A stretch of 63,672 bases of DNA, filler included, from Collodictyon triciliatum (lineage: Eukaryota), in assembly GCA_043381765.1 (NCBI GenBank). It is 5 parts of 5 records of this genome, joined end to end, with 100 filler letters (N's around TTAATTAATTAA, not from the genome) between each part and the next. Parts side by side here need not be neighbours in the genome. Positions count along the whole stretch, not along the records: positions 42,460 to 56,498 come from JBHJMP010001881.1; 4 more parts are not named here. One strand, 5' to 3'. The notes below the pieces were generated by a model. The model had not been told where the DNA came from. It saw nothing but the letters and a program-made list of their open reading frames with translations, and ran no database searches. A program made the translations under genes and the position numbers. This document shows positions 14,545 to 56,598 of the stretch, piece by piece (position 1 is the stretch's first letter; each line of letters starts with the position of its first letter).

Positions 14545-16571
<2,027 letters not shown>

Positions 16572-31633: not shown

Positions 31634-31732
<99 letters not shown>

Positions 31733-34700
31733 CTTGCGCATTTGCAGGAGAACCAAAACTAGTAAAGTAGACTTCTTTCAAATCAGCCGATGAACCCCAT
31801 TGTTTTGCAATTGGGGTAATTAGGTTGTCCCATTTCTTTGATTTAAATATGGAAATAAGCATTATAAAGGTTACTCAAACGTAAAAGAGTCATAAATTAT
31901 TCAGGACATGATAGTATTGAAAATAAATGAAAAAAATAAAGGCATAAGAACAAAGTACGTCTTGCGATTGTGTTCCAACTAGTTTGTCTCTAAATATTCT
32001 TTGTGCTTCATAAACCCTAAATATTGTTATAATATTAAACCCAAAAACAAAGTAATTTTGGATGATGTTGTGACATTTAAAACTCATGTTGGTCACAAAG
32101 CATTCCGAACGTGTTTCTTGTAACACTTAATACCATATCTCCATAAAGTCTGCAGAGTTGAAGTCGTATCTCAATAAACCAAAGAGCCATTGAGTCAAAT
32201 CACGGGGCGTGAAGATATAGTGCGGTTGCATATCGACAGTAAATTGTACCTGGTTAGGTTTTTCATTTCGAGAGATTAAGTGGTAAGTACATGAAAAATA
32301 AAAGAAAAAAAAACATCAAAATTCATACCCTTGTCCGCTCATATATCTCCACCATCGATGATGACAACTTGGCAATACTCGAAGGGTCACTAAACCTCTG
32401 CGATGTTTTCAGAGATGAACTTAAGAGCCCCTTTGCCAGTTCAGCGTATATAAGACTCAGTTGATCAGTTGACGGATAATCAATATCTAAATATTTCAAC
32501 AAAACAGGATATTTTAGAAGGAAGCCAAGCAAAATTTAAATAGCCTCTTTATGAAAAAAAAAAAAAAAAAAGGTACTAAGATTATCATGAAAGGCATACA
32601 ATATAGTCGGACAGTGCTGGTGAATCGAGTGTTGAGAGGATGTCGACCAACAGTTGTTGCTGGGTTCATCGACCCAATAATTTGAATATTTGTAATTCCA
32701 ACCCATTCATTATTCGCGTCAAAGAAGCCCTAAAATAGAACATACAATTTGAGTAAAATTGTTCATATGCTACTTTCACATGATTTTTTTTTTTTACTAC
32801 GCACTGTTGTAATTCTTCATTATTATCTTTCTTTTTTAAAAAAGAAACAAGAAAAAAAAAAACGAACCTTATATGTTATCAATTGTTGAAGAAATGATAT
32901 AAGTTGGGATGTTGCATATTTATCTGGTTTAGGCAGGTTCAAATCTTTCAGGTAGAGAATAAGCCTCTCTCCTTCTTTCGGTCTCAGCACACGACCTATT
33001 TGATTTGGTTTATTCCGAGTATTCAAAAGCCATATTCTTGATATTCATTTCCAAAAAAAAATATTTTTTTTTCTTTTACAAAATCTATGCAAGTACCTGT
33101 ATTGCTGCTGATTGCACTAGTCATTTGCATAAGCTTATTAATAACATCGGTCGCTTGGGTCTGTGCATTACAATGGACAGTTGCAACAGAGATATTTGGT
33201 ATTGAGGCGAAACATTTTCTCAGATGCATTCTCTTTCCACAGCCCTAATTACCATGCAAATATTCATTAGAGCCTTGTCTTCATATGAGCAAAGATCCAA
33301 ACGCCGGATTAATATATAGATCAAACCTCTGGGCCAACGATAATGAACGGCTCCATCTTCTTCATCCACGGTTCCAAAACACTTGAAACTCTTTGTACCT
33401 CAGCTGTATTAGCGATGTGACCACCCAATACTTCGCTCGGAGACAGCGATTGCGAAGGACTGTGCTCGTATGTTGCCATGGATTTCCCGGCCCAGAAATT
33501 ATCCTGCAGGGTCGTATGAGTAAATGGTTTTTTTTTTATTTTTTTATTCTTCCTTTCAATTTTGTGCAGAGTAAATGGTTGTTGTTAACAAAGACAATGT
33601 GGAGATCTGCAGCAATTTTCAAAATATTAAGGCAGCCAAAATTAACCAAGATTCTCTTCAAATCTGCAGCCCGAATGCCAGTTTTTTCAAGAACTTCCCT
33701 AGCTAATAAGTTTCGTGCTTCGATGCTCAGATTGCCGCCGAGCCCACGAATGAGACCCACTGCAAATTCTTCCAGGCATTTTGCGTGTGCAACTTGCGAG
33801 AGTCCATTCAAGACAAGGCCGACCTAATACAAGATGGCATACGTATTTTTTTTTAAAATAAAGAAGCTATATGGCCACATATGGAAAAAATGAGTAAGGA
33901 GTATATACCCTTGTAGTTTCGATGATAAATTGGTCCTGCTCAAGAGTATAGTCAAGCATTTTGACAAAATAATCACGAATCCACGGTTCCAGCAACTTTT
34001 TTTCTGACTCAGACTTTGTATTACGAAAATTTCAATAAGTCGTGGTAATTAATATATAAAAACACAGCTTTAGGAAATTATGTATTTTCTGTAGCACATT
34101 ACAGCAGATATATAATCAAAAATCTCATGTGATTACAAGTTGTTGCATCCATGTCTTCATCAGGCCAGGGATATCAACATCCTCATCTGACATGAAAATC
34201 ATACCCATTCTAGATGTTTTTTTTTAAAAAAAAAAAGAAAAGAGAAAAACTGACATTAGTATTCCTATGATTGGTACTGCTCCAATAAACTCGTATCAGT
34301 TTTAGAATATACCTGCTGACCGTAGCTGGTGACGCATAACTTAGACTGTGAGTTTCAAATATAAAGTTGACATTATTTCCAAACTGGATTCGTTCTCCAT
34401 TTGGCATGGTCAAAAGTTTGTTATCATCCAAAACAGAATTGAGCGACTCAACCCACTCTGGGTCGACATCACCATCACACAAAATCCATGACCTGACTTC
34501 GGGCGGCTCTACTACGACCTAAATTACCGAGAAGATGAAAAAAGCAACGGAGCTTAAACTAAAGATGGTTTTAAAAAAGCATAAATTAAAGGAGCTGTTT
34601 TCTTCAAATAATAAAATTATTTTCCACATGTACAAGAATCAAACTTTTCTCGATGCCGATGTTAATATTCCATCATGCCATTCTCGTGTGTCCATATTCA

Positions 34701-37700
34701 TGTGACCAAGTAATTGCTGTCTTGGCATGGCCTTTGGATTCATCTGGTATAACCTGAATTCATTGGAATCGATATGTCAGTAACTTTGAATTCCATGAGC
34801 TCTTGATTATGTAATTAAGGGTACATCTCATGTTGAATAATGAGTACTTTACAACTTGTCCACACTTGTGCAAGGCCAAACGAAGAGTCTGCCAAATAGT
34901 TGATTTTCCACACCCAGAAGGGCCTGTAACCACCACACCCATACGCTGTCGCGTGGCTTCGTAAAATTGGAGGATTTTTCGGATCTGAGTATGATTCTCC
35001 TGTAACTTTTGTTCAGTGAGAGCTTCCTATAATTTTACAAGACGATGTCAGAAAAAATAATGTTGATAAAACTTGCAAATAATCATATTATATCATTTTG
35101 CTTATCCTAACTTTCCTTTTTGAAGGAGAAAAATCATTATATCTTTCGATGATGAATCGTCGAACCTTAATTTTTTCAGTAAGTGTGGCATAGTCAACAT
35201 CTTGAACTTCGGTGCCCGGAAAAATGTCCTGAATAAGTGCTTGGAATCGTTGCAAATCTGTAAACGTGAGCTTTGAAAGAGTATTTACACGCAAAGACTT
35301 GACGACAAGCTGGTTTTCGATTTTGGCATCAATATTTGTCCTAGCCTTTCGTTCCTCCTTGTATAATAATGGTAAATACATTTAAATACAACATATACTC
35401 AGCTAAAGTATAAATTGCATAGCGTAGGGATAATGATTAGTGTCAACAATTTTTTTCTCGTTAAAAGGCAATGAATCACCTGGAGAAGCTGTCCAGCAAC
35501 TCGTAAGACAGTTTTCAGGGCACGGAGCCCCCAATCATAATGCTGTTGTGAACTAAGGAGTTGCTTTGATAGTGTAAATACCGAAACTATCTTACGACCA
35601 CATTCTCTGGCATTCATGTAGCCTTCAGCATACCTATTTTATATAAAAAGAAAAAATCCTGTTATTTCAGATATATTTATATTAGATAATTTGTCTACTT
35701 AAGCGCAAAAAGAGGCGATGTCCCCGTCAATACACACGACAATAGAAAGTTGTGTACTACAGAGGGCAAGTATGTCAATAAATAAAATGAAGGAAGGTAG
35801 GAAGGAAGGGAGTAATATTACAAAAGTGTCTCCGCAATCAAATCATTGTCTGGCGCAGACATTGCAACAGGGCGGAAAAGCTGTTTCAAATTGTCCGGTA
35901 GCTTAGAACGACCTCCATAACTATAATCGTGTGGCATCAGTTTTTCTTTCTATATCTTACTTTTTTTTTTTGCATACAAAAAAAAAAACCGTCAAATTTA
36001 CCGCAATAATTATTCGTTTCTTTTCATTTTTTTTTTTAAAAAAACAAATATTAAAAATATAAAGTTGCGATCGTACCCTTTCCCAGCGGGGTTCAGGGTG
36101 ACGAATATGGCGGCATTGTGGTCGACTTCGATTACTCTCTCCAGTAATTCCAACTTCTCGCTTTTTTTTCTTAACGCATCCTATTAAATTCGTGAGAAAA
36201 AGAAAGATGATATTCATCCAACATGATGAAAAGGGAATGATTGAATTCTATTTACACATCCAGTATTAATTATATATGAGAAAAATGAAAGACTTACTTG
36301 GATAACTTGGATTTGAGTAGAAACTGCAGAGAGCACATCTTCTTCCAGACGATTAAACTCATCAAAACATCCCCTTTTGTTCAAAGGTGGATTTAGCTAA
36401 TCCCCCCTTTTTTTTCAGAAAAATGAATGTGATATTCGATAAATGATGTATATATATTACCATGCGCCTGACTTTACAAGACCCGCAAATATACGACCCA
36501 TGCTTTTGTAGTCAATTCCTTCATCGCAATTAAAAACGAGAACTTGTCGCCCAAATGCTAGCCCAAGAGCCTTTACAGATTCTGTTTTTCCTGTTATATT
36601 GTAAAGCATTTGCAAACGGTATGTTATTATGGCATAGCCGAGTATTTTATTCTAACACAAAAACAACCTATTTCCCTTGTTCTATAATGGATATCATAAT
36701 ACCTGTTCCAGCCGGCCCGTAAGGATTTCCTCCCATTCCCAAAGAGAGCCCTTGAGTCAAGGTCAGATAGCACTTGTCTGTTAGTGGAGTGTGGACAAGA
36801 CGGGGTGCATTTCCTTGATACTCGTAGGTATAGTCGAAAAATCCCTATATTTAAACGTCACGGCGTTGACAACGAATAAATAAATAAATAAATAAAATTA
36901 GAGGAGGAAGAGAAATAAAAATAAAACAAAAGGACAAAAGTGAAACCAGAGAAAAAATGATACATTATTATTATGATTGGAATTAATTTTTTGTTTGTTT
37001 GTTTGCTCGTTTGAAAGAAAGACGCACGGAACTCATCCTAATATTAATCAGGCTCTTCTCGTTGAGATAAAAGCGGAGTTGTTTCTGCCATTCCCAAGAA
37101 TTCAAAGTTGTGACCTGTGCAGCCGAGAGTTGGTCTACTACATCCATATTGTGGATGACATCCAGGATTAGGCCTGCATAATTAAAAGAAAAAGGGCAGT
37201 CAGTATCAAAGTGAATTTTGTATCATAAATGTACACTTTAAGAAAAAGTAGCCACAGTTGATAAAATATACCTTGAATCTTAAGGAATAGGACTCGATCA
37301 TCTCCTGCGGTTATTTCAGTCAGTTGTTTCAATCGACCCTTTCAGAAAGAAAAAAACACCAACTTAACAGTGTCACTAGCTACAAAAAATAAGAAAGATT
37401 GGAGCAATCACATGAAATATCATTCTTTGTTGATAAGAAGAATTATAAAGACTACCTTTTGAACATCTTTGAATTTTCCTAACCCTTTCTGGGTGATGGC
37501 CTCTTCGCATCCCTTTGTGAAGCTGGTGCATTCTGAAAGGGACAATATTTGTGCTGGAAACACACTTGGGTCTGCCTTTTTTATGCATTCAATTACCATT
37601 TTCTGGAGCGTCGACTGGTTGAAAGATACGATTATCAATCGAGATTAATAAATAGTCAATTGAAATTGAAATATTATCTTAAATGATGTGGTATAATACA

Positions 37701-40700
37701 TGATACGGTTTTTCTTTCGTATCTTTATTTGTAAATGGTTGATACCTTCATTTCATCTGTGAGAGATGACAACCACACCTCAACTTCTTCGGTAATTGCA
37801 ACTTCCTTTGATAAAGGGACAACTTCTCCTTCGGAACTCTACGATTAAGGATGTTTTGAATTTTCGCCTGTTAATGTTCCATGAGTTGAATTGCAGTAAG
37901 TAGAGAAATTTACATAGTTGCATAGTAGAATTTAGAAGGGTCCATTTTAGGTTGTTACCTTAATTTCTAGAATAGAGCTTTTATTAGCATTAAACGTGAC
38001 ACGGCGAATGCCAGCATAGAGTTTTTGCATTTGACTTTCGATGACTTGGGGATCCTTTGATTGACCTAGAATCTCCAGCAAATCGTCGTCGCCGATAAAG
38101 TAGAACCGGGGGAACTTACTCCTTTTCTCCTCAAGGAAGTTGGCAAGCGCTTTCTGACATCTCTCAAGTTGGTCGAGCATAGTCTGTGGCGTTAATAAAC
38201 ATTTATTTATTTTTAAAAAAAGGGGGGTTATCACCAAATAGTTCAACATAATTAAACCTTGCTGATAATGAACATGAATGATAAGGCAAATTACTTTGCA
38301 GTTTTCTAGTAAATTTGGAAAAGATGTGAGGGTAACAACACGGTTATCACGTGTAAGAGAGCTCATAATGCTGCGGAAATCTTCATCGATACGACGGAAT
38401 CGTCTGTATAATAAGGTTCAAATTATCGACATCAGCAATACAATGTTAACATTTCGTTTTAGCTTATTGGTCGATATTGTAAGAAGTAAATACGATTGCT
38501 CGCTGGGCAATGAGCCTCGTGAAAAAATAGGCTCCAGGTAAACCCATTTTCGTTGGATTTGATTAAGCAGTAACAGAAGCTCGTCCAGAATGATAAACTA
38601 AATCATACATGTCACTAAGGGTGAAACTTTTCAAGAAGAATGATATAAGAAAATATAGAGAGAAAAAAGGAAGCCCAAAAGCGAGATAAAAAATAAGTTG
38701 TAGATAAATTATTTTCTCAGTCTCAAAAACCTTCGATTCCCATGCTGCTGCATCTGCCTGGAAACGTCCAAAGAATGGAGACACTTTTAGCGATTGAACC
38801 AAAGCCTGGTTATCACCAATACTAGTCATAACATCCTTCCATTCCTTAATCAAACATATTGGTTTGGCAGCCTAATAATATGCAAAGTAATGAATTACAC
38901 AAGTAAAATGAACTGAGTCAAAGATATAGCAGAGGCAGTCATATATTCTAAATTTATTATCACAATACCTCTGTGCGTTCCATCATCACGAATTTACAAT
39001 CCTGCGCCCATTTTTCAACCTCTTCCAAGGCTTCGCGAATTGATACCTCACCTTGGGCTCTAGCGATAAGGTCCTATGCGTAGGGCAGAAAAGAGGATTT
39101 TGTGGGTAATGGAGTTTATGAAGAATTGTTAACACTCAATTTATTTATCTTGAGTTGTTTCATGCAGGGAAAAGAAGGTCTCAGTGAAGGTTCATGCAAC
39201 GAGATTAAGACACTTATACCTTAATGTCTTGAAGCTTCTGAATTAATGCATCCCCTGTTTTGAGAAAATGGCCAAATTGGAGTGTATCTCTACTCACTCC
39301 TGGCAATCCCAACATTCTAAACAACTGTTGCCAGTGCTCGATTTCCATTTGATCTCCTCTTACAATCCTAGCGAGAACAATATGGCAATTAATGAGAGAA
39401 TAAGATATTTACCTTATTGTGACAAATTTAATCATATGCAGGTATATACCTGTTTTTTTTTTTAATTAGAAAATAAGTAAAATAGTAAATAATATTATTT
39501 GCCTACTCGACTAAAATATAAGAAAGTACTTACTTCAGTGCAGGAATATACGATTGATATGCTTGAAGATTTTTCTTCATATTCAACACAATGGGTTCGT
39601 TCGGCACTGTTTTCAACTTCTCGTCCCATTTGATAACAAAGTCCTCAAACACGTAAATCCTTAATCGGAACGTCAACCAGTCCTGCTTCTCCAAATCGTT
39701 AAGCTCACTCAACATCTCGTATAGTACACCCCAATCATCTTCGTACCTTAATATTGAAATAGTGTTGAATTTTTCGACAAAAAAATAGAAAAAAAAAGCT
39801 CTTGTGGTGGGATTACATATAAAGAAGCTGATTATCTGGTAGTCCTTCTAACCTTTTCAGTTCAGTGCCAGCATTATCAAATTTATCAAACTTCGGCAGT
39901 GTAACATTGAAGTGTGTGCTCTCAGTGCGAAGATCAGATAATTCTTTGGCAAGTTCATCGTATTCTTGTCGTTTTCCAGATATCAAATCAACCACTTTCT
40001 TGGCCTCCCTTCAAGGGTTTCATTAATGTCATATATTAACAAGAGGAATAATTCAGTACCATTGCAATACATTTGTTTTGTTTTTGTTCACAGTCAAAAG
40101 TTCCGCAAGTTGCATAATACAAAAAATTACTCATAGGTGGCAAGTGTAGTGTTCGGACGTGATTCGTTCTACGATAAGGGATTATATAAGATTAAGTAAT
40201 CAATCGCCTAGTATATGGAAAAAAAAAAAAAAGTTGGTGACAGAATAGGGCGAAAGAGATAAGGAATGTGGTGACATATACTGACCCATTTATTAACATA
40301 TTTGTCAGCTCTTCCTTGAAATTCTTTCAGGCGCTCTTTCATTCCAGCTTTAATAATTTCTGTTTGTTTTGATATGATTTGATTGTGTCCTTTCAACGCC
40401 ATGTCCAGTTGCTATCAAGAGAAGAAGCCAAAGGTCAGATTTATAGAGCTTACATGAAATCGAACTATATTTATAATGAATGTTCACCGCACCTCCATTC
40501 TGGTTTGAATTCCAACAACATCTATTCCAAACCCGATAATTGATTTGAGTAATTGATTCTTCACTTCAAATTCTTGGTATGTTTCTTGGACTTTAACCTA
40601 TTTTGAAGTTTTAATTCAAAAACTACAGGTATATATACTATTAAAGATATAGGAAAAAGAGAAAGCAATTACAGCGAATCTATAAGAAAAGATGTTTTTT

Positions 40701-42283
40701 TTTTTTAAAGCTGCATTGAATAATAAGAAACTTCTTATCTGTGATAAAAAAAATACATTTTGTTCTTGAATCTGAACACGGGCGTCACGGGCATCTTTTA
40801 CTTCGGATATAGTTTTGGGTTTACCACTCAATCGTTCCAGCGACCTAGCGCGCAAGTCGTATAACAATTAATGTAAACTTACAAAATGTGAATATCTCAT
40901 TTCATTTCATTTCATTCCTTTATCTCTCTCTCTCTCTCTTTTTTTTTTTTTTGGAGGGGCGGCGTTAAATCTTTGAAGACTCACACTGTGATGAAATTAT
41001 CAACTTCTGCCAAATCCCTCATCGCAGCCGACTTCAATGAAGAGACGATAGCATCGACAAATCGCTTCAGATTTTTACTTGTTAACACGCTATATTGCTC
41101 CAGAAGGACAATATGTACGAAAAGGTACATAACTCAATTGCATAATTTCGTGTAAAATTAAAACAACCTGCAGTATGTCAGACAACGCAGCCTTCATCGG
41201 CGCAGCTGATATTGTGAAGCAATCAACCTGAATCCATCATGATTACATTATACATGATATTTAAATTGATATGAATATTCTAATATAGGGGAATATTAAT
41301 CATAAAAAGATAACAATACCAAATTGAATGAAAAATGATGTATAATCATATTTAACTCTAGCATACAATTCTTCAAAACCTTATATGTATCCAATAATTT
41401 TGTCAGGTCCTTTTCTTTGTTCCTAATCATCTTGACGCTACCCTCAAAGCTTGAAATTCCTTTCACGTTCTGTAGATGTATTGAATCACTTTCATTCGAA
41501 TTTGTGTCAAACCCGAAAATGATGAATATATAATGGATTTGTGGAGGATTGTACATACATCGTCGACAAATCTGTCTATATCCACCACTGATGCAAAGGC
41601 AGACCATTCGTAAAAAGAATCTTGTAGGCTAAGCAGGCGAGAAAATAAATCCTCTGATTTTTTGAACACGGTATATAAAGCCTCTGGATTTCTGTTCAGG
41701 ATGGCCTACAGGTAAGATTATCGATTTTGTGTCAAAGATCTTAAATAATTATTGATTTTTTAGCAATATTTTTTTTTAAAAAAAAAGGTTGATTTTGATT
41801 TACTCTGAATATAGAAGATTCTCCGACACCAGAAAAGTTATTAGGGATTGAGATGAATTTCTTCATTTCACGAAAATATCTTGAACGAAGCTCTTCGATG
41901 GGTGGGTTGAACTATATTGTTTGTTTATTCATTCATTTAGAAGATGAATACGTCAGGACAAACAGAAGGATTAAAAAAATACCACTCTACGACTATATTT
42001 TTTTTTGTCGGTTAGAATGTATATTTTAACAAATTATTCATTCATTTTTCATACTTGAAGGCGTTGTTTCTGGACAATTAATTGGCATGGTATTTCAGTA
42101 AGATTTTCGTTTAGGCACTCAAGGCCTAATATGAACTGAAGGGAAATTTGAGAATGAATGTTTTCTTGATTTTTCTATTACTTGAGAAACTATTGAACTT
42201 GGGACAGCTCTTATACCTGAAATTCCAATGCTTTGAATAGTTGATAATCGCAGTGCATCTTCCACATGGACAAATCGCTGTAG
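28719..42283 (-). CDS. DYNC2H1: Cytoplasmic dynein-2 (IFT retrograde) heavy chain, internal fragment filling the whole contig
   Basis: [20 protein letters not shown]1 GPAGT|GKTE, AAA2 [39 protein letters not shown], dynein-2-type [10 protein letters not shown] and [39 protein letters not shown]4 GRGGVGRR, then stalk coiled coil. Both ends are missing. Confidence 0.92.
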
Positions 42284-42359: not shown

Positions 42360-42459
42360 NNNNNNNNNNNNNNNNNNNNNNNNNNNNNNNNNNNNNNNNN
42401 NNNTTAATTAATTAANNNNNNNNNNNNNNNNNNNNNNNNNNNNNNNNNNNNNNNNNNNN
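42360..42459. other. Artificial assembly linker N44-TTAATTAATTAA-N44
   Basis: Identical 100-nt spacer. Confidence 0.98.
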
Positions 42460-43271
42460 CCTTTCTTTTTCTTTTCTTTTTCTTTTTCTTTTTCTTTTTC
42501 TTTTTCTTTTTCTTTTTCTTTTTCTTTTTCTTTTTTTCTCTTTTCCTTGTTTTTATTTTCCTTTTTTCTTCGGTTTCATTCATCCTGTAAATGGATAAAC
42601 TTCATTACAAAGGTTGTGACGAACTTGGTTTTGTCCCTTTCAAGGCACAACACTTTTTATACAACAAAAGTGTACCCATGTATAGCAGTTTATTGCACAG
42701 ACAACCATCGAATTAAATCTGGATTGACGAAAGCAGGAGCTTTGAATAATCCATGAAACAACCAGAATAATATAATAGTATGATTAGTATAAAATAAAAT
42801 AAGGTTAAAACTACTTAATAATCATTCTATTCCTATAATCAATTTATACTTTTTTTTCATCGATGTATGTACTATCATTAAGATTCATAAATGACAAACA
42901 AGCCGCTGTCTTAGCCCAAACAGAACCCACCCTATCATCCTGCCACCAAACATGCATTTAAAAAAAAGCATACTATCCACACTTGCGGCGGTAATCATGT
43001 TGTTTTGAGCCGATATGTTGACTTTCAATCACAATGGCTCTACGGCCATCCTATCGAACTCACCGAATCGGCTCTCAGCGTTTTGTCTCAAATCACTTAT
43101 AAAAAAAAACTTATTGTTGTTGTTTGTCACAAAGCGCACATTTTGAGAGTCTCATAGATGCTTAATTTTACATAGATTGATATTGTGCAGTTGTTTTTTT
43201 TAAAAAATTAACTTGATTAATTGACTGATTGACTAAAGTTTTTTTAAATTGAGAAATCGGTAGTTTTCTAA

Positions 43272-45249
43272 AGGAAAAAGAAAAGCAAAGACTTTCACAC
43301 GAAGAAAAGAAAACATCTTGAGTCTAGGAATCTAAAGTCTGTGAAACCAGGCTATCGAAATGTGAGAACATCTCTCAAGTCGATTGTAAAGAATGCGGAT
43401 GACTATTACAAAATCAACGATACGGTTTTATTGTGTCATAATTTGGTTACCGACACTTATCTGTTAACAAGATGCTACCTATTGAAATCACAACAACCCC
43501 CAAAAATCGATGAAAAGTTTTTTTTCTGTATGCTTTAAAGACAGTCGGAATAGTTTCACAAGGTAGACCTGCAAGACTAAAAAAAAAAAAAAACATCCAG
43601 AAATGTGAGAAATGACATGATGACTTTTATCTCAATGATTTTTGATTCCTTTTGTCCCGGAAAGAACGCTTTCCGTTGGTCGGACTGTCTCATGTATTAC
43701 CCTACTTGGTGAAGCAAATGCTAACAGCTTATCATAATAACATTAAGGAACATTTTGTTAAGAGGTTCCTGTGCTTTATAAATCAAACAGTTCCTCAAGA
43801 TGAGAATATGACGGAATCTATTAATAAAGACAGAGTTACGAAAGTTAAAAAAAAAAAGCCATCTTCAAGAAACTCGAAATACCAGAACAATATAAAGAAT
43901 GGTCTATAACGTATTTGCGTCATATCATTCCCAACAGTATTGTAAAAGGTATCAAATATGACGCCAAAGTCAATCAAAATAAGTACGCACCATGTTTGAT
44001 TTACATGAATCGCATTTTTTGGGGACATTTGAGCCAAACTGTTTCAACCAATCTCTATAAGAGCTAACAATATACCATGTCATATTAGTCTAGATACTGC
44101 ATGTTTGATAGCTATTAGTATTGTCTGGAAAAACATTATTACTGAAGAATATATCAGGATGCAATGAGACCATATGGGATAAGTTCTTTGAAATGAAGAA
44201 GAGGGTCTTTCATCAAACATACTACAATTTTAAATACACGATACAAACAGACGGCTTTGCAGTGTCATTATTATTTGAAAAGAAAGGCATTTCAAATTCA
44301 AAAATCAATTAAAATCAAAAAAACAAGAATATGTTTATTTAGATGAACTTTCCGAAGAGCGGTTATCTTTAATCAGCGACAAACAAATGTAGTTGGAGTA
44401 GACGCAGGCAAGTTTAATTTTGTTTACATGGTGGATGAGACAGGTAAGCAATTACGTTACGCGGCACACCAAAGAAGACATGATAACAAGTCTCTTAAAA
44501 ATCACAAAATACTCTTGCGCGAAAAAAAAAAAGTAGAGTACAATTAGTCAGGGATATGCATGTCAACAAGCTTACAGAGTACTGTTTCTTTTGGTCACAT
44601 GTCTTTTGAAGAGAATCAGCGGTTTGAGACTTCAAGAGCATCTTTAGTCGATTTAGACACATAACTGAGTTAACATAATTCATGCACGGTTGATTATGAA
44701 AAATTTCGAAAATATGTATCTATGAAATCAAGATACCAGATAGAATTATCCAGATTTTACGAACACGTAACTTTTCGAAAGATGAGATGGAGACAATATG
44801 TTAATACAAAAAAAGTGAAGAGTTGTTTATGGACCGAATCGAAAAGACATTTGGCAAGGATGTTGTACTGGCGTATGGAGACTGGAGCAGAAAATCTCAG
44901 ATGAACCATTTTATACCAAAAATCGGAAGAGGGTAACGAAAAATACTATCCAAACGTTTTGAAACAGTTAGCGTAGATGAATTTAGAACCTCCAAGATGT
45001 GTTGCAACTGCGAAAAAGAGCTGGAATATATGACACTGAAAGGAAATTCAAAAAAAAATATGTCTCATATGTAAGGAATGCAATCGCTCAGAAAGCAAAC
45101 AAAGTTTATTCTTGACAAGGGACTTTAACAGCGCTTATGATGTACTCAACAAAGAACTTTTAATCCTTCAAAAAATGCATACATCTTCATCTAAAAAACA
45201 GGCTGCTGGGTCTTTCCTGGCAGCCTTCACCACTACACAATCTTTGTGA
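43272..45249 (+). pseudogene. Fanzor1 (eukaryotic TnpB-family RNA-guided endonuclease), near full length, multiply frameshifted
   Basis: Stitched frames give RKKKSKDFHTKKRK..VRTSLKSIVK..LPYLVKQMLTAYHNNIKEHFVKRF..KYDAKVN..LIYMN..KLFQPISIRANNIPCHISLDT..IWDKFF..TIQTDGFAVSLLF..VVGVDAGK (RuvC-I D, 44401)..LRYAAHQRR..HNSCTVDYEKF..FRKMRWRQY..VLAYGDWS..VDEFRTSKMCCNC (RuvC-II E, 44979)..CKEC..TRDFNSA (RuvC-III D, 45121). Confidence 0.9.
44544..44649. mobile_element. 94-bp insertion inside Fanzor flanked by 6-bp direct repeat TTAGTC (possible target-site duplication)
   Basis: TTAGTC at 44544-44549 and 44644-44649. Removing the insert brings KILLREKKK next to (L)VDLDT*LS*HNSCTVDYEKF at a plausible spacing. 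Confidence 0.55.
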
Positions 45250-45330
45250 AAAGTGGTGAGACCTTGGATACTAGCGCACCTGGTTTACCAATCGAAAGAA
45301 TTGTGTATACTTCTAGTAATGTGTATTTAA
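45200..45330 (+). ncRNA. Putative Fanzor omegaRNA (fRNA) scaffold
   Basis: Three adjacent stems overlapping the 3' end of the Fanzor frame. (1) AGGCTGCTGGG/CCTGGCAGCCT at 45200-45226. (2) TCACCACT/AGTGGTGA with inner CACAA/TTGTG at 45227-45259. (3) TACTAG/CTAGTA at 45269-45318, enclosing a GAAA-tetraloop hairpin at 45286-45308. Confidence 0.65.
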
Positions 45331-46161
45331 TGACCATACCACCAAATCTGTGAATCTCTTGATACACAGTATAAAATTACAATTTTGTATGTATGGTGCT
45401 CCTTTTGTGGACTACTTGCAATTCTATCACCAAGGTGACCTCGGCAGCAGTCCCTTTGGAGAACAGATGTTTCATAATCAAGTTTTGGTGGTTGCAGAGT
45501 AAAAACTTTTAAGTAACTACGAAAAGTCATATGACGAACCAATGAAATATCTACTGCAATTACCTTGATGGTCACATGCAACCTGGAAGTGAGGATGACT
45601 GAATCAGGGGAAAACTAGTAGCAATTATAATACACAAGAGCAAATAATAAGATATATACATAAATCACTAAATTGTAACAATTAACTATTTACCTATTTT
45701 CTGTTTAGATGAACGCGCACTGCACAACCACACCAGCACAATCTCCAGACAAGCAAAGACACCGAATCAATTGCCAGTCCAGCCAAATCATTCCGATACG
45801 ATTAGAGAGTGTCTCCACCCTTCGCTCATTTTCCAGAACTGGATATAGCGGCGCATAGCGGGCGGCAGTTTAGTTGTAGCGCACCGCGCTGGACGTGTCT
45901 AAACATGCCAATCTGCCAACTCACACCGAACCAGATGCGCAGCGAAAGGCGCGCGAGCCATCCTATTCTACTATTCTTTTTCCTTCGTGATCAGAGCAGA
46001 GACGGAGGGAAAAAAAAAAAAAGAGACAGAGACGAGCGTAGCGATACGGCCGAAGCCTGCCTGCTTGGCTCCTCGAGTCGCCTCGTGCGGCCTGTGATCG
46101 ACTCCACAGACGGGTCACGCCACTACCGACCTTGTGTGTTTGGGTGGACAATACCTGTTTC

Positions 46162-46410
46162 CTTTTTCCTTTTTTTCTTTTTTCTTTTTTTCTTTTTCTT
46201 TTTTCTTTTTTCTTTTTTCTTTTTTCTTTTTTCTTTTTTCTTTTTTCTTTTTTCTTTTTTCTTTTTTCTTTTTTCTTTTTCTTTTTTCTTTTTTTCTTTT
46301 TTTCTTTTTTTCTTTTTTCTTTTTTCTTTTTTTCTTTTTCTTTTTTCTTTTTCTTTTTCTTTTCTTTTCTTTTTTCTTTTTTCTTTTTTCTTCTTTCTTT
46401 TTTTCTTGTT
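46162..46410. repeat. (TnC)n polypyrimidine low-complexity tract
   Basis: Direct T-run/C array that explains the spurious poly-K and poly-F ORFs. Confidence 0.93.
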
Positions 46411-47023
46411 TTGTTTTTGTTTTTCACTGTTGCACTTGACTCTTTGAGTTTGAGTGGATTGTTCGATGAAGAGACCTACCGGCAGTAACTGCACTGGCAA
46501 ACAAAAAAAAGCAAGCAAAAGCGGGCTTAGTGGACTTTTCACTATTCATACGAGTCGTATGTGTATGTATATGTGTATGCATATGTATATCTAAGTAAAG
46601 AAGACCAAGTGAGAGCATTCACAAAAGAACGAAAAGAACCACGCGTGGCTACGTATTTTCAGGGGTCTCTGTAACAGATGATTTGAGTGTGTTTCTATAT
46701 GCCGCTACTCCCAGGGAATGAGTGTTATATCGCTGATAAAATAAAATAAAAAAAAAGTATTTTCATCGAGACGTTCATGCATTTTCCCTATATGTCGGAG
46801 GACACTTACGCAACATACACTCATCAGCTCAGAAAGCAGCGGACCACAAGTCTAGTCTGGAAGGGAAGAAGAGCAAGAGGAAGATTTTCGGAAGGAACCA
46901 TAGTGAATAACTAACAAACAAACAAACAAACAAACAGACAAAACGACAAGAAAAGTAGCAAACAAGCAATCATACTCGAGAACATAGAAAGGAGAGAAGA
47001 AGAAGAAGAAAACGCAACCGCAA

Positions 47024-48778
47024 ATGAGTCATTCTGGAACGAAAGGAAAGTACACGTCTGTGCGTGGATACGGTGTGGAAGAGGAGCGCAACCCGCGCTT
47101 TCGCCGAACCATGGAGGCAAGTCCATATCTCTTTTCCGCTCATTTCTTCATTTCACAATACATCGTCTTGTCTTGTCTTGTCTTGTCTTGTTATGTCTTG
47201 TCTTGTCTTGTCTTGCCTTGTCTTGCCATACGGTATATCTATTGGTCGCTTTCGTATCTGTCTCGTGCTGTCGTTCCTCTTCCTCGTCCATTGTCATCTT
47301 TTCCTCTCTTAAAGACTTTGTCTTCTATCGTGACCGATATATGCAGGATGCGCATATCTTCATCGATGGCTTCGACAATGTGCCTGAGCAGTTCTTTGCT
47401 GCGATATATGATGGACACGGTGGTCGCGGGGCAGTTGACTTTGTTGTGGAGACTCTTCATGTGGTGAGTATGGAGGGATTCTCTTTCTTTTCTTTTCTTT
47501 TCTTTTCTTTTCTTTTCTTTTCTTTTCTTTTCTTTTCTTTTCTTTTCTTTTCTTTTCTTTTCTTTTCTTTTCTTTTCTTTTCTTTTCTCTGTTATTTCAA
47601 ATACCTAAATACCGGGCGATCCGTTATTTATGCAATAACGTACTCTATACGGAAAAAAAAAACGCACCAATCGAATGTAGAATCTGCTCAATGGGCTCCG
47701 AGCAAGCAGTGGGTTTCCAGATATGCCCAAGCTATGGCGTTCGTCTTATCTCCTCACGGACACGCAGATGCAAGAGAAAGGAATCATGTACGCTGGCACG
47801 ACAGCCATCACTGCATATGTGCACAAGACCGAGAACGGAAAGTATCTCTTCACCGCGAATGTTGGTGATGCCCGTATTGTCTTAAGGTTAGCCTACTATT
47901 TTTATTTTCTTCCTTTCTTTCTCATTTTTCTCCTATTCATCATATATATATCAGACTTTTTTTATCCTTGCTTTTATACATACCTGCCCACTGCACAATA
48001 CTAAGCGTTCGTTTATTCAGTCGAGGTGGCAAAGCACACCGCCTCACCTACGACCATAAAGGATCCGATCCTGAGGAAATTAAACGCATTATCGAGGCTG
48101 GAGGATTCATCAACTCCAATCGTGTCAACGGTGACTTGACTCTACATCAGCTAATCGACCAAATATACACTTTGTTGCTTGGCATTAATATGCTCAAGTT
48201 TTTGCTACCTCCTTGTAATCATATTAAGTTCGGTCCTTGAACGGTATTCATTGCATCCCGTTCTATCGCCCAGGTATTCTGGCCGTGACAAGGTCGCTTG
48301 GAGATCACACCATGAAAGACTACGTGATTGCAGACCCATACACATTTGAGGTTCTGTTACAGGAACAGGACAATCTCCTGATATTGGCATGCGACGGGGT
48401 TTGTCATTATATATAATTCTTTTTTTTTTTCCTTTTCTTCTGCTCTCTTTGGATATCACACCCCTCCCGTGTGATAACTACTGGACAATCAAACAAATAT
48501 TATTATTACTTTGGAAAATAATATAATTGGGTTTGAGTATACTTAGCACATGCTTATTTGCATGTATGCTCGTTACTTGATCCAGAATAATAAGAGATGG
48601 TAATTTCAAATTAATTTGGTGTTGATTGCAATAGCTCTGGGACGTTATGACGGACCAGGAAGCCCTTGATTTCATCAAGGAAGAGCGAAGCGCAGAGAAG
48701 GCTGCAAAGATTCTGCTGGACCAGGCCCTGAGACTCGGGACAACAGACAACGTTAGTGTCATCGTGATTCACCTATGA
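47024..48778 (+). CDS. Protein phosphatase 2C (PPM family, Ptc1-like); possible extra upstream exon from ATG 46792
   Basis: [60 protein letters not shown]. Confidence 0.93.
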
Positions 48779-49420
48779 TAAAGACCATTGTTTCCTCTTT
48801 TTCCTTTTTCTTTCTTTCTTTTCTTTTGGAAGTTACGTCTGATAAACAAATGACACGCCCGTTCGAGAAAAATCGAAAGAAAATGAATTGGCATGGCAGC
48901 CTCCGACTATAATACATGAAGCCAACTAAAGTAATAAAAAAAAAAAAAAAAAAAAAAAAAAAACGAGTAAGTCCTACAAATGAATACCCTAAAAAAATAT
49001 CAATCGATGTCGAAAGCAACCACATAAAGTTTGGGTACCTGCAATTCACATAGTTTTTTGTCGATAGCGGGAACTGTGTATTGGTAGGTTATTTTTGTTC
49101 CAAGTATATGGAGGCCAAAGAAAAAGATTATGAAAATGGATGTGGTATTTGCTGTGGGCACATGGAAACGTCAGTAATTTGGGGAACCTTGACATAATTA
49201 GTTGTTTGGCTTAGAAGCGGCAAGGAAGGAAAAGAGGAGAGGAGAGAGACAGACACACAAGGGAGAAGAAAAAAAAGATTTTATGACAAAGGTAGCGCAT
49301 TTGATGGAAGACTGATTTTGTTGTGAATCGCCGCAAACTATTGCGCTTTTTCCCCAATTTTTTTTCTTTCTCTTTGTTGTCTCTTCCAACGTTTCTCATT
49401 TTATTGTCCTGGAGGCACAG

Positions 49421-52400
49421 TCAGTAGACTTTCCAAGCTGGATCGCTTTCGCTGTATGACATGGATGGTTGTTCAGTCAGCTCCAAACGTGGGACATTCG
49501 CCGCGTTTACGATATTATCTCTGCTGACTGGAACGGCGTCTGTGGGAAAGAAAACTGGTATGTAAGTAATTTGGTGATGCATATCCATAGCCATCTAAAG
49601 TGTAGTTTGAAAAAAGTGAAATGGTACGTTGGCCTTTAATCTATGCAGGTAAATGCGGATGACATTTTGCTCAAACAGAAATGCATATAAAAGTTCAGAG
49701 GAATTCAACACAAAACAAGACCACTGTTGCGAAATGGGTCTACCTTGTCGCGGCTCGACAGCAGCGAGGTCTCGCATCGGAATATTGCGAGGACCCGCCG
49801 GTGATTCGACAATAGAGTTGTCTGCTCGGGGGCCCCGGTTCTTCTTCCTGGCTCTTTCCATGTATGCCATCTCGCGGATAATGGTAGTACATGACGGCTT
49901 CAGAAATCCGTAGGCACTAGAGAATGTCCATCGGAATCGATGGAATGATAATGATTAGTTCAACTGCCACATTTTCATTAATCCAGAGGGGCATACATAC
50001 ATAGATACAACGGCACGTAAAATAAATAAATAATAATTAATTATGCACGCTTGGTTTAGAGGCAAAACCTTGTGATTGCAAAGTCAATCATGCAGCCGAG
50101 TAATGGAGCAGCAAATATAGTGAACCAGAAAGCTGGCATCGCAGCGAGATTGAAAAATACCCCATAAACCTCGGCAATTGTCACAACATCAATAGAGTGG
50201 TAAATTATCATAAAGATAAACCAATTGACTACACTGCCTATAGTAAAGAGCCAGTTCCAGCCAGTCCACGTACTAAATTAAAATATGCATTTATTTAAAG
50301 GTGCTCAATTGACTGCCACACAGAGGATGTGATGCATGCGGATTCAATTTGTATAGGCTTAGGTGTTATATGCGATTTGTATGCCCTTGTTTTACACCGA
50401 ACACAACTGACCTCGTCATGAAAGAAACCTTTAGGTTAACCATCAGGATGATGCATGTGTATGATGTTGTTCCCAGGGCCCATAAACTATCGCCACCGCC
50501 TATTCCATCTTCTGAGGTGGTAGTGTGATTGACAAAGACCAAGTATGGGAAGAAGAAGCAAATCTAAGCAAATAATGGGTAAAAAAAAAAAAATTAAAAA
50601 AAAAAGGTTCCTTAAATTTGGTATTTTATAATCGCTGCTAGACAAAACGTCCCCTATAAGCCTTATTTTTTTTTTATTAAACCAAACTATTAGTATTGTC
50701 ATGCATTAATCTATATTTATATTTACAAACCAGTGAGTGTATGAACCCATCGAAAATCCATATCCAGAAACTTTTCATATCAAACTATTGTGTATATTTG
50801 TAAATCATTAATCGCACATAAACGCACCCACATGAATATGAGGTTATAAAATATGTTCCATATCACCAAAATACTACGGCTAAAACAAAAAAAACAAAAA
50901 ACAAAAAACAAAAACAAAAAACAAAAAACAAAAAACAAAAAACAAAAAACAAAAAACAAAAACAAAAAACAAAAAACAAAAAACAAAAACAACATAAATG
51001 AGAGAATATGGAGAACTGTCAAAATAAAAAAAATGTGTGTTGTCGCGTTCAAATACCCTTTCGGTTTGTTGTCGGTAAGTGTATAATTTTGGATATACTC
51101 GCATAGCTCTTCTGGGGACATCACGGTCAAAAATAGCAAGACCCATAATTGGGAGTGAAGTGAAAAACACATTGAATACTGCGATGTAGAAACTGTCTAG
51201 AAGGGTCTACTTTCGAAAGTTTAGCAAGGGCCAATAGATCATATTTCTTTTTTAAAACAAACAAACAAACAAACAAACAAACAAACAAACAAACAAACAA
51301 ACAAACAAACAAACAAACAAACAAACAAACAAACAAACAAACAAACAAACCTGTCCCGAGAATCCGGTGAATATAGAAAACCATAAATGGGATAATGTAA
51401 AGCAAATGTTCTTGTAGAAGCTATAGCGAACAATTTGGCTGATACGAAGATACGACCAACGTCCATGGACCACGAGCAGAGGAAGGAGAAATGTTTTCGT
51501 ATTAAGGGTGATATTTATTAGAAGGAAGTTGTAAGAAAAAGACGCATGTGTGTATCAAGCTATCATAAACCGTGGTTTTCATAAAAGGATATCGAAACTG
51601 GGCGATGGCGTAGTCACTAGACATGACAGCCTGCATTCCCTCTTGGCCACTGATTCCAACACCTGAATCAATCGTTTGTAGAGCGTGACCAGCATCAATA
51701 GATTATATCGGTTTCAAGATTGTCGAACAGAGATATGTTGGCAGCATGAGACTTTGGATTGAATAGAGGTGAAATAATTAAAAAAAAGAAAAAAGATCGT
51801 CAGCCAGACGAAAATTCTGTTCAGAGTACTTACCTATGTGTGCTTCCTTTATCATGCTTACATCATTGGCACCATCTCCAATAGAGAGTGTAATCGCGTT
51901 GACTGAATCCTTCATTAATTTAACCACACGTGCCTACCAACCAACAAGGTTTGGAGATTGATTAATCAGATTGCTCGTATATGATTTTCGTAATATGAAT
52001 AGCTATAATACTGTTCATTAAAAATACAGAGAGATAAATGTGACATGGAGAAGGAATCAAAACCTTTTGGGCTGGTGACACGCGACAACAAATCACCGAT
52101 TTACTGATTGAAGCTAGCTTCAAGAACTCTTCTCTGCATTCGATTAGGCCAAAATTTAACGTAGCTCCATCAATCACAAGCCCGATTTCACGGCCCTGGG
52201 AAAATAACAGGGCAAATTCATTAAATACTTTGTTGTGCTTTGGATTATATATTATTAGTGCCTCCTTGGAATCAAATAAAGGAGAAAAAATATTATTAGC
52301 GCCCTGTCCCCAGCTATTACCTTGTTTTCTTTAAGCTCGTATTCATATCGCTCAACTAGAATTCGGCGAGTCTCTTCGGGAGTAGGAGCGTTGACAATGA

Positions 52401-55400
52401 TGATAGACATTTCCTGGTCAATCAGTCGGCAGGAATAGCCAATGTTAATGGCTGTCTCTTGTTTGTCACCAGTGAGAACCCATATCTTCAATCCAGCCTG
52501 TTCAATTTCCGTCAGTGATCCAATACAATAGTTGGTTAAGATTAACAAGGTGAAGGAGCCACGTAATGTAAAAGGATAAATCGGTATAAGGTTTACTTCG
52601 CGAAGAGCTCCAATACATTCTGGAACACCATCTTGTAGCTTATCTTCAATGGCAGATGCACCCACTAATATAAGGTCTTGCTCAATTTCTTCAGCGATCT
52701 TTTCCACCTGGTACAAATGAATCATTTTTTCAAATAAGCTGGTCAGAATGTTTCATGAATATGTATACACATTGGGCATTCACAAAGAAAAAACAACATT
52801 TTATTTTGTTAAATAGCGCCAGAATATAATCGATAGAACGAAAACTATTGCTGAGAGTATAAAAAAAAAAAAAATTAATGTAAATATATGCACTCACAAG
52901 CTCTTCTCTGTCTGTTAAAGAAATACTGGCATCGATAAATTTCCTGTTCCACGAATCGTATAAATGGGCTGGAATCTCTTTTGATCCTAAGCATAGTGTG
53001 CGCAGTCCATCTGCACCGAATTCCTATTTAGAATTTATTCAATTTAGTTGTAAGTTGGCATTCTTGACACTCTTTTTTTTCTTGACACTTTTTTTTTTGA
53101 TAAAAAAATTGTTTGCAAAATGGTAACAGGATAGAAAATGGAAAAGGACTGATGGACTGTTTTTTGAACTAAATGCAGCGGAAAATAGACGATGATGTGT
53201 ATCCATTAATTACAGAAATATGATAGGAAAACAAACATCGAGATGTCTTTTCATCGTTGCGATTGAAGCTTCTTGACCAGCAGCAAACCGTGGAAACATG
53301 ACTGTGTCGGCTCCTTTGCAGAAAAGAATGACCTTTCCTACATATAATAGCATATATTACATTTTGGTTCCAGCAAGGCTCACGTTCATTCATAATTATA
53401 GAGTATGTGTTTGAGTATATTCTGGTACTTAATGATGGAATACAATGTGTATTACCCGTCGGCGATCTGGCGATAAGTGACATTCTTTTTCTATTGCTAT
53501 TGAATTCGATGACGTTAAGAACTTGCCAATCCTCATCACGATTTAATGAGTTTATTGTGACCATTGTTGGTGTTCTCGTCTAGATTTATCAACTTTGGAT
53601 TAGATTGGATTTTGCTGCATGCATTTCATATTAATAATGCGAAACAAATTACAAATTAGAGAATCGTAAAGATGTTCAGACTTTCCATTGGCTCCTTATG
53701 TGTGTTTGACATAAAATCATGCTCTTGATTTCCTTTTTTTTTTAAAAAAAAAACCTTGAATTTAAATCCAAAATATCTAGCAGCGTTCACCAGAGCTCCC
53801 TCATCAGGCGATGATGCTTGGTAGACAATAGCTAATCGCCAACCAGTGATGATATTTTATGACGATGCATGTAAAATTATATAGTGAAACCAAATGAATT
53901 TCATGAATAATTCCAAAGGATTTTGACATACTCACTAATACAGCCATCTTGATTAAACAATACAAGGAAAAGAAATAATAATAATAATAATAATAAATGA
54001 AGGATAAAAATAAAAGGAAGAAAAGTGCCGATACGAAAGAATTTGTGTAATCTACTTACAGTCAATACTATCAGGATTATCCTTATCGATTTCAGGAATG
54101 ACTGTGTGGCAAATTGACATGAGAAACATAAAGTCATAGATTTTCTTGGATTGGTCAGTTTGGCCTGACATAAGCTCATCTTGAAGTCTCCTATCACTGA
54201 AAGAGTACGTCTACCAAAAATAAGCCATTAATTCGTTGATTGTTTAACATGCACATTAATTGAATGTTCAGTCAATACAATTCTATTTAAGTATATAATA
54301 TGATAAAGTATATGTTAACTACCGATTCGTTATTGGGATCAATAGTCCCATAGACAACACCGCCTATACTGCACTTTTTGAATTCCATGATATTTCTTGT
54401 CAAAGTGCCGGTCTTGTCTGAAAAGATATATTGAATCTGTCGGAAAGGCAAAGTAATAAAATTGATCACTTCGATATTAGAGTTTGAAGCCGATATCTTG
54501 TAAAGTCCATGCAAGTCAACGATGATTTACCCTTTTGTGAGAAAATTACCTCGCCAAGTTCGTCGCTCAAATTTGAAGTTCGAGCTTGCGCAGGTGTATC
54601 ATTCTCAGCATAGTACATGTCCAAATCAGAATTAATTAGGAGCGCTTGGGCAACTTTGACCATTTCGATAGATACATATAGCGATATCGGAATCAATGTA
54701 TTGTAAAGAATAATGTAAGTCAAGATCCCCATTCCACCGTAGTTGACAGAATCTGTGCTAGATTTGAAGTCCAAGTACCAGGTATCGTGCTTGTTATTAC
54801 TCTTTTTTTTTTTTTTTTTTTTTGAGAACGAAGAAAAGGGAAGAAGAAAAGGAATTAATTGGTTTACTTGCTCTGACACTAGGCTATGCACATGAGAATA
54901 AACTAATACTTTTGTGAGATCTTAATATTCAAATAATTGTAAAAAGAAAAGAAAAAGTAAAAGAAAACAAACCACAAATACACCACCAAGAATACCACTT
55001 ATCACAGAGAGCGAGATAAGGACTGAGAACACTGACAGAATGTACCCATTTAAATTTCTCTCTATCGAGCTTGCCTTCATCTTTGTCTTGCTGATGAGGT
55101 GAATACGAACAACAATAAAATACATCAAAAATAAATTTGCGTAAGAAAGGAGGAAACCATCGTGTTAAAAGCTGAATATAAATGATATGATTCAAATTTT
55201 GATTAGTGTGCCATATTTCTTCCACTTTCTTGATTTCTTGTTGTCTTTTGTCTATGAGAGGGAAATTATGCTCACGATGAGTTTTGCATCAATTTTGTAT
55301 CATGTCCAGCGAAAATTATTATACCAACGATCCACTCGGTGTTGCGAAGCTGACAACCCTGTGATAAAGTATTGCTAAGAGAGAATAGTCATAACATAAT

Positions 55401-56282
55401 GACAATTGGCACGATAAATTAACTTACTCTCAGCAGAATTTGATTGTTGTCCAATGGGATGGTATCAGAGCCTAACAGAGTTATGTTTCCCTCAAACTTG
55501 TATAGTTGATTATTGGGGTGTTCGCACTTGATTACCGATTGCACCAAATTGTCGAAAGCAGAAACCGATGCAATCTGTCTTTCAATAACAGTGGGAGCTT
55601 GCTTGACTTTAAGGTTTGTTTCTCTGTTACCAGGCAATATCAGACACATTAGCTCTTTCAATTATTCTTATTTTTTAACATTAGATAGCCACAACTGATT
55701 AGATTTCTTGTTATCGCTTTTTTTTTCGCACTTCAATTTAAATAAGTGTAATGTTATCTTAATCAGATATAGTTAAAATATGACAGAGGATTTATTCCCC
55801 CAAATAACTATTGGCTGAGAACAATAACAATTATAATCGAATCGGTTACCCATCCAAGTTTGCGGTTTCTATGTAGCATATGCTATCTACAGTATTTGAT
55901 TTGACCATGAGTAAATCAGCTGGGAAGAACTCGCGGTCTTTCACTTGAACAATGTCTCCAACTCGGAGATCTTTCCAAACTGTAGGGCGAAACTTTTTTT
56001 CCTCGATATCATATGCAAGGACTGGACGATTATTTATCTCATTGTCTTGTTTATGACGAAGCTGTAAGGATTTAATATTTATTTTATCACTAAAATTATT
56101 CGGAACTGAACACACGGGGGGGGGGGGGGAACATGAGAGAATTAAGTATATATTGATACAAAACAAAATAAATCCATCTCACAAAGTCCTCTCTAGCTTC
56201 CTTAATGGCAGACACTCCCAATACGAATAATAGAGGCAACATACTAAGAAAGGGATTCACCGGAGAAACCCCAGGAATCGCC
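49421..56282 (-). CDS. P4-type ATPase phospholipid flippase (ATP8A/Drs2-like); 5' end missing at contig edge
   Basis: [107 protein letters not shown]. Confidence 0.95.
51493..51592 (-). other. AT-AC U12-type (minor spliceosome) intron, 100 nt
   Basis: Minus strand ...CAGTTTCG|ATATCCTTTT...CCCTTAATACGAAAAC|ATTTCTC.... Removal restores the conserved [20 protein letters not shown]. Confidence 0.9.
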
Positions 56283-56433
56283 TAGAATAATAGCTATAAT
56301 CAAACTCTTCATATGCTGGTATGTGAATTCGAAGCACCACAAAACTTCAAGCATAATATATATGGTTATGGTTAAACAGAAGGGCACCATCATTTTCAAA
56401 GTAATAATGTGATGAGGAATCAATAAAAGCATG

Positions 56434-56490
<57 letters not shown>

Positions 56491-56498
56491 ACACCCAC

Positions 56499-56598
56499 NN
56501 NNNNNNNNNNNNNNNNNNNNNNNNNNNNNNNNNNNNNNNNNNTTAATTAATTAANNNNNNNNNNNNNNNNNNNNNNNNNNNNNNNNNNNNNNNNNNNN
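56499..56598. other. Artificial assembly linker N44-TTAATTAATTAA-N44
   Basis: Identical 100-nt spacer. Confidence 0.98.

Follow-up and report, generated by a model that had tools for sequence, protein, structure and literature searches.

The window analyzed here is a 63,672-nt stretch of DNA from Collodictyon triciliatum, along the whole of which all coordinates are counted; its positions 42,460-56,498 come from JBHJMP010001881.1 and contain what appears, judged by its sequence, to be the relic of a Fanzor1 gene. Fanzor1 proteins constitute the eukaryotic and viral branch of the TnpB-Cas12 family of RNA-guided DNA endonucleases with a single RuvC domain. The forward strand between 43272 and 45249 holds open frames of 31-88 aa only, and yet, as claimed in an initial annotation of this stretch, a collinear protein of about 600 aa can be recovered from it. 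A frameshift-aware alignment, run as a check of that claim, was anchored on a 634-aa relative (P0011), the closest full-length match of a 90-aa read-through piece of the locus (P0002, 44805-45074, with stops as X). This alignment places residues 3-588 of P0011 on 43302-45144, with 571 aligned pairs at 44.5% identity, and shows the motifs of the locus to be collinear with those of the relative; the N-terminal half (residues 3-371; REC/WED) falls on 43302-44400. A tblastn search with P0011 recovered six collinear segments in three frames over 43302-45210 (summed E 2e-90), a degree of collinearity not attributable to chance, and none of the 968 tblastn segments obtained with all fetched relatives lies outside 43250-45300. 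The same alignment reveals 8 frameshifts and 6 in-frame stops. Hence, the description of the gene in the initial annotation as hidden by frameshifts is correct as regards the frameshifts, but the stops imply that it is not merely hidden.

The assignment to Fanzor1 emerged from comparing translated pieces of the window, and P0011, with the chains of known structures. P0002 returned six matches at E<=10, namely PpFz1 from Parasitella parasitica (PDB 9cf0; E 3.2e-9), which is the best solved-structure match of this RuvC-II/zinc-finger piece, SpuFz1 from Spizellomyces punctatus (PDB 8gkh; E 0.0069), a weak match to GtFz1 from Guillardia theta (PDB 9cer; E 0.11), and three unrelated chains. Another piece (P0001, 44347-44904) aligned collinearly with chain residues 771-809 and 821-884 of SpuFz1 (E 0.022), two stretches situated directly upstream of the P0002 match at chain residues 877-950. 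When P0011 was used with a cut-off of E<=0.01, all three matches were Fanzor1 chains (SpuFz1, E 9e-37 over P0011 residues 14-607; PpFz1, E 7e-34; GtFz1, E 7e-16), with no TnpB, Cas12 or Fanzor2 chain among the solved structures at E 0.01. A HMMER search with P0002 against 1.84 billion representative proteins recovered 919 proteins at E<=1e-3, of which 141 remained at E<=1e-10; the strongest match had E 1.2e-27. Thus, the locus combines similarity to Fanzor1, the RuvC Asp, Glu and Asp, a CCCC zinc finger with its characteristic spacing, a long collinear N-terminal half and residence in a eukaryote; an intact frame is the only tested feature of such a gene that is missing. Given that the alignments with SpuFz1, PpFz1 and GtFz1, the catalytic residues and the published sequence motif of the family all fit, the locus is best described, at the level of sequence, as the relic of a Fanzor1 gene, in agreement with the identity proposed in the initial annotation.

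All motifs named in that annotation are found on the forward strand in the predicted order, from VGVDAG to TRDFNSA, distributed across three frames (Table 1). The catalytic Asp, Glu and Asp as well as all four zinc-chelating Cys are intact in the relic, and match D383, E541, D606 and the zinc finger of SpuFz1. According to Saito 2023 (PMC10432273), these three residues together with N385 coordinate two magnesium ions; in place of this Asn, which in SpuFz1 comes two positions past the RuvC-I Asp, the window has a Gly. At the canonical position of the RuvC-II Glu the window likewise has a Gly, and an alternative Glu is found 35 residues downstream; all 49 relatives in the conservation alignment, which comprises those of 150 listed HMMER matches that are 560-760 aa long, have this Glu. 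A section of Jiang 2023 (PMC10530073) describes Gly or Pro at the canonical position and an alternative Glu about 45 residues downstream for Fanzors generally and for 'TnpB2'. The Glu that the initial annotation had noted just before the zinc finger is therefore present, but it typifies all Fanzors and 'TnpB2', as described in that section, and not Fanzor1 alone. The motif D-X(125,275)-[TS][TS]-X-X-C4-X(5,50)-RD given by Bao & Jurka 2013 (PMC3627910) is matched by the window, with about 195 residues from the Asp to the TS and 12 from the last Cys to the RD.

The segment of about 35 codons following RuvC-I is absent from P0011 and SpuFz1. It carries two stops (44545, 44662), with a third (44671) just 3' of it. 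The protein P0005, which is 56.6% identical to the window over 205 aa, has this segment in an open and ungapped form, indicating that it is a coding insertion specific to a sub-family and not an intron. An intron at this position was considered and rejected on this ground, and because no GT-AG interval removes the stops. The collinearity of the relic with intronless viral homologs is likewise consistent with the absence of introns noted in the initial annotation.

Table 1. Coordinates of the Fanzor1 relic, its motifs and the surrounding element in the window
Feature	Position	Strand	Details
Upstream, apparently non-coding part of element	42600-43289	+	Contigs of 4 runs; no tblastn segment (0/968); open frames without Pfam match
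Fanzor1 pseudogene, ~650 codons read through	43290-45249	+	tblastn and frameshift-aware alignment; ends at TGA 45247-45249
Frameshifts (n=8)	near 43520, 43849, 44033, 44112, 44279, 44371, 44808, 45049	+	Frameshift-aware alignment
In-frame stops (n=6)	43613, 43643, 44545, 44662, 44671, 44934	+	Frameshift-aware alignment
RuvC-I, VGVDAG	44392-44409	+	Asp codon 44401 aligns with SpuFz1 D383; family-invariant Pro after Asp is Ala here
Sub-family-specific extra segment, ~35 codons	44533-44660	+	3' of RuvC-I; absent from P0011 and SpuFz1
Canonical RuvC-II position, YGDWS	44874-44888	+	Gly (44877) in place of usual Glu
VDEFRTSK	44973-44996	+	Alternative catalytic Glu codon 44979 aligns with SpuFz1 E541
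CCCC zinc finger	45000-45081	+	Cys codons 45000, 45009, 45070, 45079; split by frameshift near 45049
CCNC	45000-45011	+	
CLIC/CKEC	45061-45081	+	
RuvC-III, TRDFNSA	45115-45135	+	Asp codon 45121 aligns with SpuFz1 D606 via P0011 D581
Two adjacent predicted hairpins across stop codon	45200-45259	+	Fold z -3.6 and -4.8 versus 200 shuffles
Interval holding right end of element	45250-45335	.	4/4 runs cover bin 45222-45335, none beyond

The 8 frameshifts and 6 stops leave the window copy without an intact Fanzor1 frame, and no ATG was found in a search between the upstream in-frame stop and 43302. Because its stops are of all three kinds (TGA twice, TAG once and TAA three times) and four of its frameshifts are away from homopolymers, the copy is a pseudogene, unable to make a working nuclease. 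Nevertheless, of the columns conserved in the 49 relatives it retains 27 of 31 at the >=90% level and 73 of 91 at the >=70% level; the four columns lost from the former set are the Pro after the RuvC-I Asp (now Ala), two Glu and one Asn. This retention of most conserved residues suggests that selection had probably acted on the sequence for a long time before the copy decayed.

To understand the element to which the relic belongs we used Logan contigs of four runs (X1-X4: two runs with coded organism labels and two freshwater metagenomes), which were placed at >=80% likeness on 42600-46000. A total of 472, 482, 73 and 193 contigs, with likenesses of 80-99%, were placed in X1-X4, respectively; in X1 they comprise 44 contigs at >=99%, 95 at 95-99%, 170 at 90-95% and 163 below 90%. 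Contig copies differ from the window copy by many substitutions and small insertions and deletions. In all four runs every bin over 42600-45335 is covered and 45336-46000 has no cover at all, and the contigs listed stop at 45228-45250. Some bridge the upstream part and the gene (e.g. 42962-43388 and 42895-43304). The cover of 42600-45335 and of nothing beyond by diverged contigs implies that the element is multi-copy and at least 2.65 kb long, and that the relic is in one of its copies. The right end of the element lies within about 85 nt 3' of the stop codon, and its left end at or beyond 42600. Within the window itself blastn of the element against the remaining sequence returned the self-match only. 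Taken together with the identity of the gene, we are highly confident that 43290-45249 on the forward strand is a dead Fanzor1 copy, and that the mobile element in which it lies is multi-copy, at least 2.65 kb long and set among intron-bearing host genes. The suggestion in the initial annotation that intact copies might exist elsewhere is borne out to the extent that the family is multi-copy; among the contigs of the four runs no intact copy of this sub-family was seen.

Certain peculiarities were observed in the 5' part of the element. Directly before 42701, contigs in two runs share one sequence that is unlike that of the window, while other contigs span this point; hence, either the family has sub-types differing in their 5' part or the window copy has been rearranged at 42701. 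In addition, contigs of two runs lack 184 nt of the window sequence (43079-43262). Further to the left are a (CTTTTT)n simple repeat at 42460-42540 and a pair of N runs at 42360-42459, which hides a possible left end of the element. This pair is one of four (the others being at 14061-14160, 28220-28319 and 56499-56598) that together account for eight runs of exactly 44 N, with 12 bases between the members of each pair. The pairs are about 14.1 kb apart, a regular spacing that suggests masking rather than assembly gaps.

The relatives of P0011 number 1638 at E<=1e-10 among 5708 candidates and are nearly all metagenomic. All 120 of the relatives listed bear the precomputed Pfam family PF26935.1, which gave no match in our own Pfam scan, and one bears the source name 'Transposase, viral metagenome'. 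P0011-like proteins are encoded by five IMG/VR loci (L001-L005), one of which is on a 254-kb contig of a giant-virus metagenome-assembled genome and is 88% identical to P0011. A unit of about 3.3 kb is common to four of these loci (L001-L004); it is bounded by terminal inverted repeats (TIRs), each about 40 nt long, and encodes a 346-aa HTH_28 + DDE_3 (Tc1/mariner-like) transposase (E 1.3e-13). In this unit, which in L001 is at 4627-7960, the transposase is divergently oriented with respect to an intact 634-aa Fanzor1, and the right TIR starts about 15 nt after the Fanzor stop as part of a strong hairpin. In L005 no convincing terminal repeat was found (best arm score 25). A scan of metagenome contigs with a window piece recovered a single locus (L006), a member of the viral clade around P0011 (76.7% identity to P0011) that is truncated on its 5' side and therefore gives no information on the element's ends. 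Thus, the closest intact relatives found reside on giant-virus contigs, in Tc1/mariner-type elements, which points to exchange of this lineage between giant viruses and their hosts, in either direction.

Among characterized systems, SpuFz1 and its Spu-1 elements are among the closest to the window locus. P0011 aligns with SpuFz1 from end to end, and the same Fanzor1 architecture can be traced in the window, although the sequences are distant (E 0.007-0.02 for the window pieces) and SpuFz1 is without the segment after RuvC-I that the window sub-family has. PMC10432273 reports 42 loci in S. punctatus, 19 of them full-length, with partial copies beside full ones, and the window family is likewise multi-copy and includes partial gene copies; the 30-nt inverted repeats of Spu-1 elements were not found at the window. 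PpFz1 and GtFz1 share the GNWS/GDWS and DEFRTS motifs with the window, but PpFz1 is larger and has long insertions, such that P0011 aligns with it in three separate stretches. Bao & Jurka 2013 (PMC3627910) describe PGv-1, PUl-1 and PUl-4 as Mariner-type elements with Fanzor1 in giant viruses and oomycetes, and also Fanzor1-only derivatives of Mariner-type elements. L001-L004 share the layout of PGv-1, in which inverted repeats, here of about 40 nt, enclose a DDE transposase together with Fanzor1. In contrast, no transposase remnant, matching inverted repeat or TA duplication of the PGv-1 type was found at the window, where the left end of the element is out of view and the copy may therefore still be a non-autonomous derivative of such an element.

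Several observations weigh against the reading of this locus as a dead Fanzor1 copy within a mobile element. In Pfam searches the window pieces attain only sub-threshold matches, to OrfB_IS605 (17.6 bits against a cut-off of 30.5; E 0.0047) and Cas12f1-like_TNB (18.3 bits against 26.3; E 0.0027), with no TnpB-related family matched by the remaining 7 of 9 pieces; intact relatives are also weak in Pfam, with one of eight reaching the cut-off. When taken alone, the C-terminal piece (45040-45249) and the piece 44112-44312 retrieved no Fanzor chain among the solved structures, and a word-based homolog search with P0002 scored 0 of 29 candidates. With respect to the element, contig cover does not define its left end, as 42600 is merely the start of the stretch used for placement, with N runs and simple repeats further left; and none of the runs has more than 0.12 of the 31-mers of the stretch, so that the contig counts are not copy numbers in the genome from which the window derives. 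A repeat search and local alignment for a TIR yielded nothing above chance: the best arm score was 22, while shuffled sequences averaged 20.4 and reached 29. The initial annotation had noted that no transposase is adjacent, and we concur: the transposase that accompanies Fanzor1 in the viral elements had no tblastn match in the window better than E 1.9, and none of 10 flanking open frames contains a Pfam domain.

An alternative in which the gene is intact in the organism, with the breaks representing homopolymer assembly errors, unrecognized introns or a variant code, is very unlikely indeed. While four of the eight frameshifts do adjoin homopolymers 7-10 bases long, and the contig copies show small indels relative to the window at many places (12 listed and 189 more), some in the same tracts, the remaining four frameshifts are away from any homopolymer. 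The conserved residues are as well kept as this alternative would have it (27/31); the six stops, being of all three kinds, fit no single codon reassignment, and the standard code leaves the frames of host exons in this window open. Introns fare no better, given the coding nature of the extra segment in P0005 and the lack of a GT-AG interval that removes its stops. On account of these mixed stops, non-homopolymer frameshifts and the coding segment, neither assembly error, nor variant code, nor introns can restore the frame.

It is also very unlikely that the locus is what remains of a giant-virus genome once integrated here, rather than a copy of a cellular transposon family. Such an origin would agree with the giant-virus contigs on which the closest intact relatives are found, the viral source name of one relative and the absence of introns from the gene, unlike the host genes. 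However, the repeated block is only about 2.7 kb, has a sharp end near 45250-45335 and is bounded on both sides by unique sequence and host genes, with no other viral gene seen in the flanking frames; hundreds of contigs that diverge by 1-20% in the two organism-labelled runs form the pattern of a dispersed repeat, and the identity to the viral clade is 44.5%. Derivation from a prokaryotic TnpB of the IS200/IS605 or IS607 type, by contamination or recent bacterial transfer, or from a Fanzor2, is scarcely credible. TnpB (ISDra2) and Fanzor2 resemble the window in having a single RuvC domain, a CCCC finger and the Bao-Jurka motif, and the weak Pfam matches to OrfB_IS605 and Cas12f1-like_TNB are of a kind shared by all these families. 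But TnpB and Fanzor2 are much shorter proteins, whereas that of the window would be about 650 aa, with an N-terminal half collinear with SpuFz1; canonical TnpB keeps the RuvC-II Glu that is Gly in the window; only Fanzor1 chains match among solved structures; and the flanks are eukaryotic genes with introns.

If the window copy is indeed a decayed Fanzor1 within a mobile element, then, extrapolating from the family, the product of an intact member would be expected to measure about 650 aa, to associate with a guide RNA that is transcribed at the element's 3' end, and to cut DNA beside a short adjacent motif by means of the Asp/Glu/Asp triad, with the CCCC zinc finger. The window copy, inserted among ordinary intron-bearing host genes, is incapable of this, its frame being broken 14 times. 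A possible source of a guide is the predicted structure at the 3' end of the gene, with an 11-bp stem at 45200-45226 followed at 45227-45259 by an 8-bp stem that encloses a further one of 5 bp. In a sliding fold of 200-nt windows on the forward strand (21 windows) the lowest z-score was that of 45190-45389 (-4.68), followed by 45340-45539 (-3.16) and 42940-43139 (-3.01); in a separate fold 45190-45389 had z -4.79, and none of 200 shuffles was as stable. Strong structure (z -5.35) is likewise predicted at the 3' end of L001, a viral relative. The window structure would fit a guide RNA that overlaps the end of the gene, as is reported for GtFz1; in TnpB (ISDra2) and Fanzor2 the guide RNA comes from the right end of the element. 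Rfam gave no match at the gathering score over the whole window. Thus, the hairpins are a candidate for either an omegaRNA scaffold or a structure of the element's end; on the basis of predicted folding, a guide RNA is plausible.

Earlier publications already record Fanzor1 from giant viruses as well as from protists, fungi, plants and arthropods, and describe both partial copies and Mariner-type carriers. To this spread the window adds one host lineage and one sub-family, which links a cellular repeat family to a large, mostly metagenomic clade that includes giant-virus members. The window copy is dead, tells nothing new on mechanism, and is an ordinary member of a known family in an under-sampled host, with a lineage-specific insertion. 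A more far-reaching scenario, which we offer tentatively and hold to be rather doubtful as a whole, is that the insertion of about 35 residues after RuvC-I, shared with P0005, marks an undescribed Fanzor1 sub-lineage that is recently or currently active at high copy number in a barely sampled freshwater eukaryote, that it has been exchanged with giant viruses via Tc1/mariner-type carriers, and that intact copies with the two-hairpin guide RNA exist elsewhere in the genome. Intact copies, if they exist, would furnish further natural RNA-guided nucleases to test.

The host genes around the element include an intron-split dynein heavy chain with MT stalk, AAA_8 and DHC_N2 domains, on the reverse strand at about 29200-41900. 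The exon at 41466-41705 (reverse strand) weakly matches DYNC2H1 (human cytoplasmic dynein 2) near native residue 830 (E 0.054), and the open frame at 45330-45614 on the same strand has no match. N-terminal exons of the dynein may flank the relic, in which case it would be intronic and antisense. Other host genes encode a PP2C phosphatase (47.9-48.2 kb), an enoyl-CoA hydratase, an ankyrin protein and a 3-oxoacyl-CoA reductase. Exons at 51960-56180 on the reverse strand have motifs that we take to be typical of P-type (phospholipid-flipping) ATPases; two open frames scanned in this region had no Pfam match at E<=0.001. The 3-oxoacyl-CoA reductase exon (2958-3359) is 78% and 69% identical to two EukProt transcriptome proteins, and its identity to named proteins of animals or fungi does not exceed 52%; since these are the nearest matches of a housekeeping exon, the host lineage appears to be poorly sampled. 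Simple repeats are abundant in the window, a long CAG/CTG (poly-Gln/poly-Leu) tract occurs at 16150-16570, and K/E-rich coding-like repeats are found at 46.0-46.5 kb. The exon-rich parts have a GC content of 45-49%, as against 30-37% in the rest.

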